DNA of 64,000 bases from Octopus vulgaris (taxonomy: Eukaryota), in NCBI GenBank assembly GCA_951406725.2, contig OX597830.1, positions 28,644,001 through 28,708,000 on the forward strand, read 5' to 3'. Each line of letters starts with the position of its first letter. Positions within the stretch are counted from its first letter, which is position 1. This document shows positions 3,040 through 63,944 of this stretch, one piece after another. Under the pieces are notes generated by a model. The model was given only the letters and a program-made list of their open reading frames with translations. It had not been told where the DNA came from and searched no databases. Both the position numbers and the translations under genes were made by a program.

Positions 3040-3179
3040 TGTAGCCAGAGTGAGAGAGTGTGAGATAGAGAGAAAGAGAGAGAGAGAGAGAAATAGACAG
3101 ATGGATAAATAGACTCAAAGAAATCAGAAATGAAGATAGATAGATACATAAATAAATGGATGGACAGATAAATGTATAG

Positions 3180-35129: not shown

Positions 35130-35470
35130 CAAATAAAAATCAGTACTTATTTTTAAAATCTGGTAATCATTCGTTCTCTTTTTCCGACCCGCTAAATTAC
35201 GGGGATACAAGCACACCTACACTTGTTGACAAATAGTATTGGGGAAACAGGCACGAAGATGCACACTCAAAAACGCACACAGACACGTACCAGGCTTCTT
35301 TCAGTTTTCCGCGTACCAAATCCACTCACAGAGCTTCCTCAGAATTGAAGCTATAGTAAACGACACTTGCCGAAGTTGCAATGCAGTAGGACGATTGAAC
35401 CTCGAGACATGAGATTAGGAAGTAGGCTTCTACACAGTTTCCGTCTGCTAAATTCTCTCACAATGCATTC
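35130..35470 (-). mobile_element. SINE group C, diverged
   Basis: GGCTTCTTTCAGTTT..TACCAAATCCACTCACA..GACACTTGCC. Confidence 0.7.
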
Positions 35471-36028
35471 ATCAGCCAGGGATATATATATATATATATA
35501 TTAGAAAACGCTTGCTCAAATCACCGCGTAGGGGAGTGGAGAGAACTCGAAACCGCTTTTTTGCAAAGCTATGCCTACGGATATTATGGTATTTTGTCGC
35601 TAAACCACCCACTGTATTATATTGCAAATCATTAGTTTATAAAGTTTAAGTTTCATGAATTAATAATTCGCAAATTCAAAAGTAGATTACTCTCTTCATT
35701 TGTCAAAATTCATTTGCATATTTAAAAAAGAAAGTGTGTTACAATTTTTTTTTATGCCATATGGTATTGCTTGATTTAGAAAAACTCAAAATGGCGATGC
35801 AAAAAGAAATGCGATAAAAGACAAGCTAATACACAGAGATACATAATTTCTTTGATATAGCCATGGCTGTCTCTAAAGAGAGTGCGAAATACGTTATATC
35901 AAAATGACCATACACACACCCAGAGGTGCAAATATATCCATACATACATACATAAACACACACATACATACACACACACACATACATACACACACACACA
36001 TATATATATATTATATTTTATATATTAC

Positions 36029-62778: not shown

Positions 62779-62906
62779 CTGGCAAATAAATAAATAGATA
62801 AATAATTATATATATGTATATCCGTCTTTTTAGTATGTGACCTCGTGAATACTACCTGCAATTTTTTTCCTCTGTCCTCCCGTCTCGGGATCTTTCTTTC
62901 TCCTAT

Positions 62907-62941
62907 GTTTCTGACGAAGAGCTCCGCTCGAAACGTCAAAC
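62907..62941 (+). ncRNA. Minimal type-I hammerhead ribozyme, family A (cassette about 62835-63045)
   Basis: GTTT CTGACGA A GAGC tcc GCTC GAAA CG TC AAAC. Full core with GUC site. Confidence 0.8.
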
Positions 62942-63069
62942 CCTCCTTCTTCCCTTCTTTCCTGAGCGTCCAATAATACTTTATTTGTTCCACATCCTTG
63001 CGTTGTTGTCTTTTTGTTTTCTTGTTTGGATTAACTTTATGTATATATATATATGTGTGTGTTTGTGTG

Positions 63070-63315: not shown

Positions 63316-63521
63316 GTTTATCGTTTTATATGTATATATATATATATATATATACAAATTTAAAAGAGGAATGAGCACTAAAGTGGTCACCCTATATGCT
63401 AAACATAGACGCCAAATCGCCATTACCACGAAGAATGTGTTCTCAAGAAAAAAGTCTCAGCGAAACACCAAAATTAAAAATGATCAAGACAAATGAAAAC
63501 ATGCAAAATGAAAACGATTAC

Positions 63522-63595
63522 CTACGTACCATTGGTTTCACTTGTTAATATCTACGTATATAAACTCGCAGATATCGGCAAGATCATCAGCGTAG
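63522..63595 (-). ncRNA. Type-I hammerhead ribozyme with extended stem II
   Basis: Minus: CTACG CTGATGA T CTTG ccg ATATCTGCG agtttatata CGTAGATAT taa CAAG T GAAA CCA a TGG TA CGTAG. Confidence 0.82.
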
Positions 63596-63656
63596 TCTGT
63601 CGCTTACAAAACACAATTTTCAGAACCAGAATTATTGTCGTCTACACATAGATATG

Positions 63657-63720
<64 letters not shown>

Positions 63721-63785
63721 GACACCGAGTGGGCAGTCATCTAAGAGTTTTTGTTCATCTTGATGCTGACATAAGTTCCTTGTCT

Positions 63786-63864
63786 CTCCTGATGAGAAGG
63801 CAGCATAATGCACCCCTTATTCCTTCGAAATTAGGAATATGCAGCCTTCGAAACATATGTCGAG
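63786..63864 (+). ncRNA. Type-I hammerhead ribozyme with extended stem II
   Basis: CTC CTGATGA GAAGGC ..TATTCCT tcgaaatt AGGAATA.. GCCTTC GAAA CATATG TC GAG; canonical G10.1-C11.1 pair and GUC site. Confidence 0.88.
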
Positions 63865-63944
63865 CATAAAGGAATTTTGTTAAATCGTCGTTCAACGCCA
63901 GTCTTTCATTTATTTGTATATATATATATATATATACTTATATT

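Follow-up and report, generated by a model that had tools for sequence, protein, structure and literature searches.

The window analysed here is a stretch of 64,000 nucleotides of Octopus vulgaris DNA (contig OX597830.1, positions 28,644,001 to 28,708,000 of the forward strand), and coordinates refer to it unless another locus is named. Near its end lie, among TA microsatellites, copies of two repeat families, called here M and P, each bearing a hammerhead motif. The features are listed below, the parts of the minus-strand motif being read from the sequence.

~63352..63632, minus strand: solo copy of family M, about 280 nt (BLAST against 29 other loci)
63327..63351, no strand: (TA)n directly past the 3' end of this copy, read as the target microsatellite (sequence; family copies alike, counted below)
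63641..63715, no strand: TA-rich microsatellite, (TA)n and then TATG-like, upstream of the truncated 5' end (sequence)
63513..63604, minus strand: type-I hammerhead motif with an open-ended helix I (sequence, minimum-free-energy fold, paralogue pair counts)
63605-63600 / 63517-63512, minus strand: distal stem I, AAGCGA / UCGUUU, 4-6 bp
63599-63596 / 63521-63518, minus strand: 4x4 internal loop of stem I, CAGA against GUAA
63595-63591 / 63526-63522, minus strand: proximal stem I, 5 bp, CUACG / CGUAG
63590-63584, minus strand: core box CUGAUGA
63583 / 63540, minus strand: U10.1 opposite U11.1, at the base of helix II
63582-63579 / 63544-63541, minus strand: proximal stem II, 4 bp, CUUG / CAAG
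within stem II, minus strand: internal loop, CC against AA
63576-63567 / 63556-63547, minus strand: distal stem II, 10 pairs including two G-U, GAUAUCUGCG / CGUAGAUAUU
63539-63537, minus strand: GAA of the core
63536-63534 / 63530-63528, minus strand: stem III, 3 bp, ACC / GGU, with an AAU loop
63526..63527, minus strand: predicted scissile bond of the GUA site, 3' of A17 (63527) and 5' of C1.1 (63526) (hammerhead numbering on the sequence)
63740..63915, plus strand: copy of family P, in opposite orientation to the M copy (pattern match, genomic matches)
63784-63867, plus strand: type-I hammerhead motif of family P, with G10.1-C11.1 and a GUC site, predicted cut at 63861/63862

The hammerhead core follows the rule C3 U4 G5 A6 N7 G8 A9 ... 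G12 A13 A14, with an A15.1-U16.1 pair and an H17 that is not G, position 7 (N7) being the single free position of the core. The minus-strand motif carries CUGAUGA and GAA, pairs A63536 with U63528 and has A63527 as H17; its helix II is capped by a 10-nt loop, and the internal loops of stem I and stem II alike lie five pairs from the core. An intact core, stem I, a long stem II and a GUA site at 63604-63513 had been described in the original prediction and are all read from the sequence, and the cut proposed between 63527 and 63526 holds by hammerhead numbering, a scheme likewise used in sections of Cervera and de la Pena (2014, PMC4209133). The stem III written there as ACCA-A-TGGT does correspond to a pairing segment, but the hairpin consists of the three pairs ACC/GGU closed by AAU, since ACCA-A-UGGU would need a loop of one nucleotide and can form only between two copies, as 4+4 bp around A-A.

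When a 108-nt stretch is folded, its minimum-free-energy structure (-25.3 kcal/mol) has precisely the three-way topology of a hammerhead. Against shuffled sequences this energy is only modestly better (z -1.72; 10 of 200 shuffles fold equally well), a value that would also suit a chance resemblance, in which CTGATGA and GAAA flank the hairpin of a repeat by mere coincidence. Short boxes of this kind are common in AT-rich DNA, as exemplified at 35437-35475 on the minus strand, where CTGATGA...GAAAC occurs with a 27-nt spacer; this match is probably due to chance, taking into account that 13 of 100 shuffles yield one like it. Against such an origin of the motif at 63513-63604 stand the presence of every defining element in the correct order and spacing, including the internal loops at the same distance from the core in both stems, and the adjoining family P, a further and independent carrier of a hammerhead whose 3' end and target are those of family M. 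The window holds two matches to the pattern CTGATGA-N40-70-GAAAC, where 0.19 would be expected, and two are attained by only one of 100 shuffles; the second match is the plus-strand motif of family P, 200 nt away.

Rfam hammerhead models gave no match to the minus-strand motif at gathering score in the whole window, nor at E values up to 10 in searches of 501 nt and 121 nt. The model RF00163 (Hammerhead_1) shares with family M the core, the strand order, with stem I open, and the cleavage position, although it produced no score at E up to 10. The miRNA-like matches returned by the 501-nt search all fall on the (TA)n tract and were discarded as low-complexity artefacts, for which the TA-rich microsatellite at 63641..63715 accounts. 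On the family P motif, RF00163 reached 16.6 bits (E 0.16), below its gathering score of 34.

Comparison of the locus with 29 other loci by BLAST gave alignments of 80-91% identity, nearly all of which span 63630 to 63349 or 63327. Upstream of the point where the window copy diverges, most relatives carry family M further, and thus the window copy is truncated at its 5' side. At the other side, where the copy ends in ..AAATTTGTAT, family homology stops at about 63352-63349 and (TA)n continues thereafter to about 63327, the hammerhead motif being situated some 178 nt ahead of this fixed 3' end. A cassette running to (TA)n near 63350 had been predicted, and its boundary is borne out by the family homology; the cassette, however, is actually a 5'-truncated solo copy of a mobile repeat of about 530 nt.

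Family M comprises at least 960 first-look candidates in the 2.8-Gb genome assembly of 227 contigs. Of the 960 first-look candidates, the 40 that were scored yielded 43 matches to a 126-nt query, with identities of 84-100%. A pattern for the core plus stem III had 85 exact matches, against none for its reversed control, and an anchor pattern in which the core was left free had 156, likewise against none. The unit, of approximately 530 nt, is non-coding, with no coding frame noticed in it, has a GC content of 0.34-0.36 and ends at its 3' side in ..TTTTGTAT. At locus L003, two copies of a 302-nt segment are separated by 228 nt of internal sequence, and the second is followed by (TA)n; this arrangement represents a partial tandem of the 530-nt unit. 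The tandem pairs of the family are spaced 530-534 nt. No tRNA-like, 5S-like or other Rfam match at gathering score was found in the unit, as represented by L003 and L035, and a SINE-like origin with a tRNA or 5S head was rejected on this ground.

The insertion footprint was determined on 59 distinct family M copies spanning the core box. The common 3' end is attained by 49 of them; (TA)4 or longer lies within 40 nt downstream in 25, and a unit in the same orientation follows next downstream in 20. An inverted copy is located directly upstream in 18 of the 59 and directly downstream in none. Their 5' starts are scattered across unit positions 1-290. Among 40 copies anchored on the 3' part, eight begin at unit positions 350-377 and none at 355, which corresponds to C1.1, the first base past the cut site, and is where run-off on a cut RNA would place the start. 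The ends given by BLAST are not exact, however, and arms of inverted pairs make up many of the copies. Within these limits, the 40 copies offer no genomic trace of cutting.

Not every copy reflects a separate insertion. Identical family M copies occur at about 13-kb spacing on alternating strands in G000:C7:58743981-58958697 and, on the same strand, at 24-52-kb spacing in C13:64581396-64682903; both sets are segmental duplications that carry the repeat. In the assembled contigs of four public runs, family M is present under two species labels, with tandem joints. Contig joints that go back by about 513-518 appear alike in DNA runs and in runs guessed to be RNA, and genomic tandems give the same. 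One contig from the second species carries U in place of G8 of the motif and represents a single decayed copy.

The U-U opposition at 10.1/11.1 had been considered the only clear defect of a near-complete copy. The opposition is indeed present, but it is no flaw of this copy, since it is the state of the whole family and part of its design. Thus, G10.1-C11.1 was found in 0 of 33 copies collected by BLAST, 0 of the 85 pattern matches and 0 of 100 copies listed among the 156 with the core left free, and A10.1-U11.1 in three of those 100 by hand count. It has to be noted that G10.1-C11.1 is highly conserved in known hammerheads, yet not absolute.

Among the 33 copies collected by BLAST, the box reads CTGATGA in 13, CTGACGA in 17 and is broken in three, with GAAA kept in 30. 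The 100 listed copies comprise 59 CTGATGA, 25 CTGACGA, one CTGAAGA, one CTGAGGA and 14 broken boxes, so that the variable box position among copies is N7. By hand count, 76 of these 100 copies are intact at ten essential positions and 24 are broken there, which is roughly the background rate; individual family M copies, decaying in their core at about this rate, are thus not under selection. Such decay is what dead insertions would show and does not speak for function.

At the level of the family the picture is a different one. In an alignment of 52 copies, part of which were gathered through a pattern demanding an intact core, 95.0% of 1451 cells are paired in the hammerhead register, against 26-45% when the partners are slid by one to three columns. 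The pair 21-91 in stem I is CG in 25 copies, UA in 18 and UG in 6, and the pair 42-63 in stem II is CG in 29, UA in 16 and UG in 2. When the alignment is split by the letter at column 42, a column of our own choosing, two subfamilies emerge whose majority letters differ at ten columns of the motif region, five of these columns lying in pairs: C-G is replaced by U-A at 21/91, in stem I beside the cut site, and at 42/63, in distal helix II, and a G-U becomes A-U in distal stem I. The remaining differences are N7, two positions of loop 2 and an indel in the flank, and none of the ten breaks a helix or alters an essential core base. Under a crude null of eight random transitions, which leaves out CpG bias and the choice of the split column, 3.6% of trials leave neither the core nor any pair damaged, a share that falls to 0.07% if two double changes are demanded in addition. 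CpG sites mutate fast, and the stem I swap at 21-91 involves two of them; moreover, the two compensatory swaps may stem from one split of the family. The covariation of paralogues, which had been suggested as a check of the motif, comes out in favour of a selected hammerhead fold by both the pair counts and the subfamily swaps. A resemblance by chance is hard to reconcile with the pairing in the hammerhead register and with subfamily differences that spare the core and all pairs, and we regard it as very improbable.

A more serious alternative is that of a crippled relic, in which an ancestral canonical hammerhead lost G10.1-C11.1, the family spread without self-cleavage and the conserved part is a long hairpin, used, for example, for recognition by a reverse transcriptase or for RNA stability. 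The family-wide U-U, the silence of Rfam even at E 10 and the 5' ends of the 40 copies, which within the imprecision of BLAST ends show no spike at the cleavage site, all speak for it. RNAalifold on the 52 copies recovers just distal stem II and stem III, and proposes a small and weak rival hairpin (-6.34 kcal/mol) between columns 11-16 and 23-28 that would sequester part of the CUGAUGA box. Family M (84-95% identity) is also older, by identity, than the neighbouring family P with its canonical core (93-100% identity), and parts of Craig et al. (2021, PMC8557442) report that Naiad Penelope-like elements thrive although they lack canonical hammerheads. A hairpin kept for its own sake does not account, however, for the fact that all ten essential bases of the core persist in both subfamilies, along with the GUA site and stem I, for a compensatory swap in stem I, beside the cut site and outside the hairpin, or for the fact that the sole core position varying between subfamilies is the free N7. 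Furthermore, a natural and active hammerhead with U-U at the same place has been published: in sections of Cervera and de la Pena (2020, PMC7229834), the axolotl retrozyme repeat HHR_Amex2 is described as having U-U at the base of helix II, as self-cleaving and as doing so much better as a dimer. Thus, U-U does not disqualify the motif of family M. Weighing these points, we consider the loss of cleavage in an ancestral hammerhead an unlikely explanation.

The reading that we hold to be likely sees in the stretch a solo copy, truncated at its 5' side, of a non-coding retroelement of about 530 nt with a type-I hammerhead predicted to cut itself after GUA. Judged from its sequence features, family M RNA probably cuts itself. 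By the features tested, the family belongs with the metazoan non-LTR retrozymes and has a Penelope-type insertion footprint; such elements are already known, and what is unusual here is only the U-U together with the long helix II design. A more specific proposal concerns this design, which could be a working and selected one: U-U would stand in for G10.1-C11.1, the internal loop of helix II would act as loop 2 and dock on the 4x4 loop of helix I, and the weak base of helix II, together with the near-palindromic ACCAAUGGU, would make cutting dependent on dimers, so that the ribozyme fires on multimers only and is silent in the circle that is copied into (TA)n by an enzyme of the Penelope type. 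Taken with all its parts, this proposal is tentative and we would not expect it to hold in full.

Several relationships with axolotl retrozymes, as described in the sections of PMC7229834 consulted, support this placement. Like the HHR_Amex2 repeat, family M is non-coding and AT-rich, has one type-I hammerhead per unit, forms tandems in relatives of the window copy and has U-U at the base of helix II; its short helix III suggests action as a dimer, as in the axolotl retrozyme. In contrast to the axolotl elements, the unit measures about 530 nt instead of giving RNAs of 170-400 nt, the copies are mostly solo, 5'-truncated or partial tandems and not long arrays, and helix II is far longer (4 bp, internal loop and 10 bp), with the internal loop, and not a hairpin loop, facing the loop of stem I. 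Expression of retrozymes yields linear as well as circular RNAs of unit length. Family M represents a second natural lineage, beside that of axolotl, with U-U in place of the near-universal G10.1-C11.1. It would be of use in gauging the real weight of this pair and in learning why such motifs escape descriptor and Rfam searches.

The footprint, in turn, resembles that of Penelope-like elements. In parts of Craig et al. (2021, PMC8557442), these are described as having a 3' end that is fixed and a 5' truncation that varies, as forming partial tandems, as bearing an inverted copy on their upstream side only and as targeting (TA)n. Family M matches this description in its partial tandems, its upstream inverted and 5'-truncated copies and its (TA)n bias. 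Its motif is also like the hammerheads of Penelope-like elements, as presented in portions of Cervera and de la Pena (2014, PMC4209133) and PMC8557442, in being of type I and near the 3' end, and in that its helix II is long and begins, at the 5' side, with an odd nucleotide. Unlike these elements, family M lacks an open reading frame and has no detectable shared sequence with the copies examined; according to the same portions of PMC4209133 and PMC8557442, their mini-hammerheads keep the G10.1-C11.1 that is absent in family M, whose stem III is, unlike theirs, a real 3-bp hairpin. Animal retrozymes have been proposed to be non-autonomous Penelope-like sequences in the part of the preprint of Li, Clavereau and Pollet consulted (bioRxiv 10.64898/2026.07.22.740005), and family M, a non-coding repeat with a hammerhead and a Penelope-type footprint in a Penelope-rich genome, fits this proposal. 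As far as that part of the preprint goes, it deals with vertebrates and with sequence relatedness between pLTRs and retrozymes, whereas the link of family M is its insertion footprint only (10.64898/2026.07.22.740005). With this proviso, the family supports the published idea of animal retrozymes riding on Penelope-like elements.

On this basis, a replication cycle can be proposed for the self-cutting retroelement. Transcripts of tandem copies would cleave themselves to RNA of unit length, perhaps as dimers through ACCAAUGGU, and a ligase of the host would close this RNA into a circle. A reverse transcriptase/endonuclease of the Penelope-like type would then use it as template at nicked (TA)n, with priming near ..UUGUAU. 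Partial tandems would arise when copying runs round the circle or follows a multimer, and 5'-truncated copies such as that of the window when it stops early. Taking into account that the window copy includes the cleavage site, its template would have been an uncut or religated RNA.

The neighbouring family P gives an indication of the copying machinery. Its 1599 first-look candidates gave 59 matches of 93-100% identity, with many copies arranged as inverted pairs, and it is, as judged by sequence, younger than family M. Its helix III is palindromic (ACAUAUGU), and the copy in the window has ..ATTTGTAT as its end, with (TA)n next to it. No sequence relationship links families M and P, yet both end in ..TTTGTAT directly before (TA)n (window positions 63352 and 63915), which hints at a common priming site or at microhomology to the TA target. 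That two such families agree in their last seven bases and are inserted head to head in one TA microsatellite would be consistent with a common machinery that copies both into (TA)n.

Candidates for this machinery are abundant, the genome being rich in GIY-YIG elements (148 matches from 6136 first-look candidates with the Pfam GIY-YIG profile). At locus L079, an open frame of at least 597 amino acids encodes RVT_1 followed by a C-terminal GIY-YIG, and the element ends in (TA)n. A canonical CTGANGA..GAAA is absent from the element's strand of L079 before the terminal (TA)n. In 20 of the 148 loci, each with 1.5 kb of flank, no sequence was shared by family M or P with an autonomous element carrying reverse transcriptase and GIY-YIG; one flank holds a family P copy, by chance, and a scan for CTGANGA..GAAA near GIY-YIG loci gave unrelated motifs only. 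With no sequence common to family M and these 20 loci, the Penelope-like copier is a putative one. The 3' untranslated part of L079 (1795-2870) has internal repeats of about 100 nt (..GATTGGTCAAAA..TGATGACGTC..). Separately, L081 (G000:C1:183008335-183011598) contains a hammerhead-like motif with a long helix II, CTGATGA-GTACT...AGTAC-GAAA, at 455 on the plus strand and at 3057 on the minus strand, as an inverted pair about 1.3 kb downstream of an RT/GIY-YIG frame.

As for the window copy itself, its intact core and complete helices might suggest a ribozyme recruited by the host to serve this locus, for instance in the processing of a local transcript. Yet the copy is 5'-truncated and one among hundreds to thousands of decaying copies, it is not distinguished from its paralogues, and its locus lies amid microsatellites and other repeats, so that such a recruitment is extremely improbable. 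The window copy is most likely ordinary and inert repeat debris. Being solo and 5'-truncated, with no second site, it would not permit the release of a unit-length RNA from 63352-63632, and alone it could at most cut a read-through transcript.

The whole stretch of 62.7-65.1 kb is a cluster of repeat insertions amid (TA)n and (CA)n tracts. A dispersed repeat at 63918-64362, with homologues in L008, L018, L021 and L022, flanks the TA microsatellites around the two copies, as do other dispersed repeats at 62802-63054 and 65004-65121 of L001.
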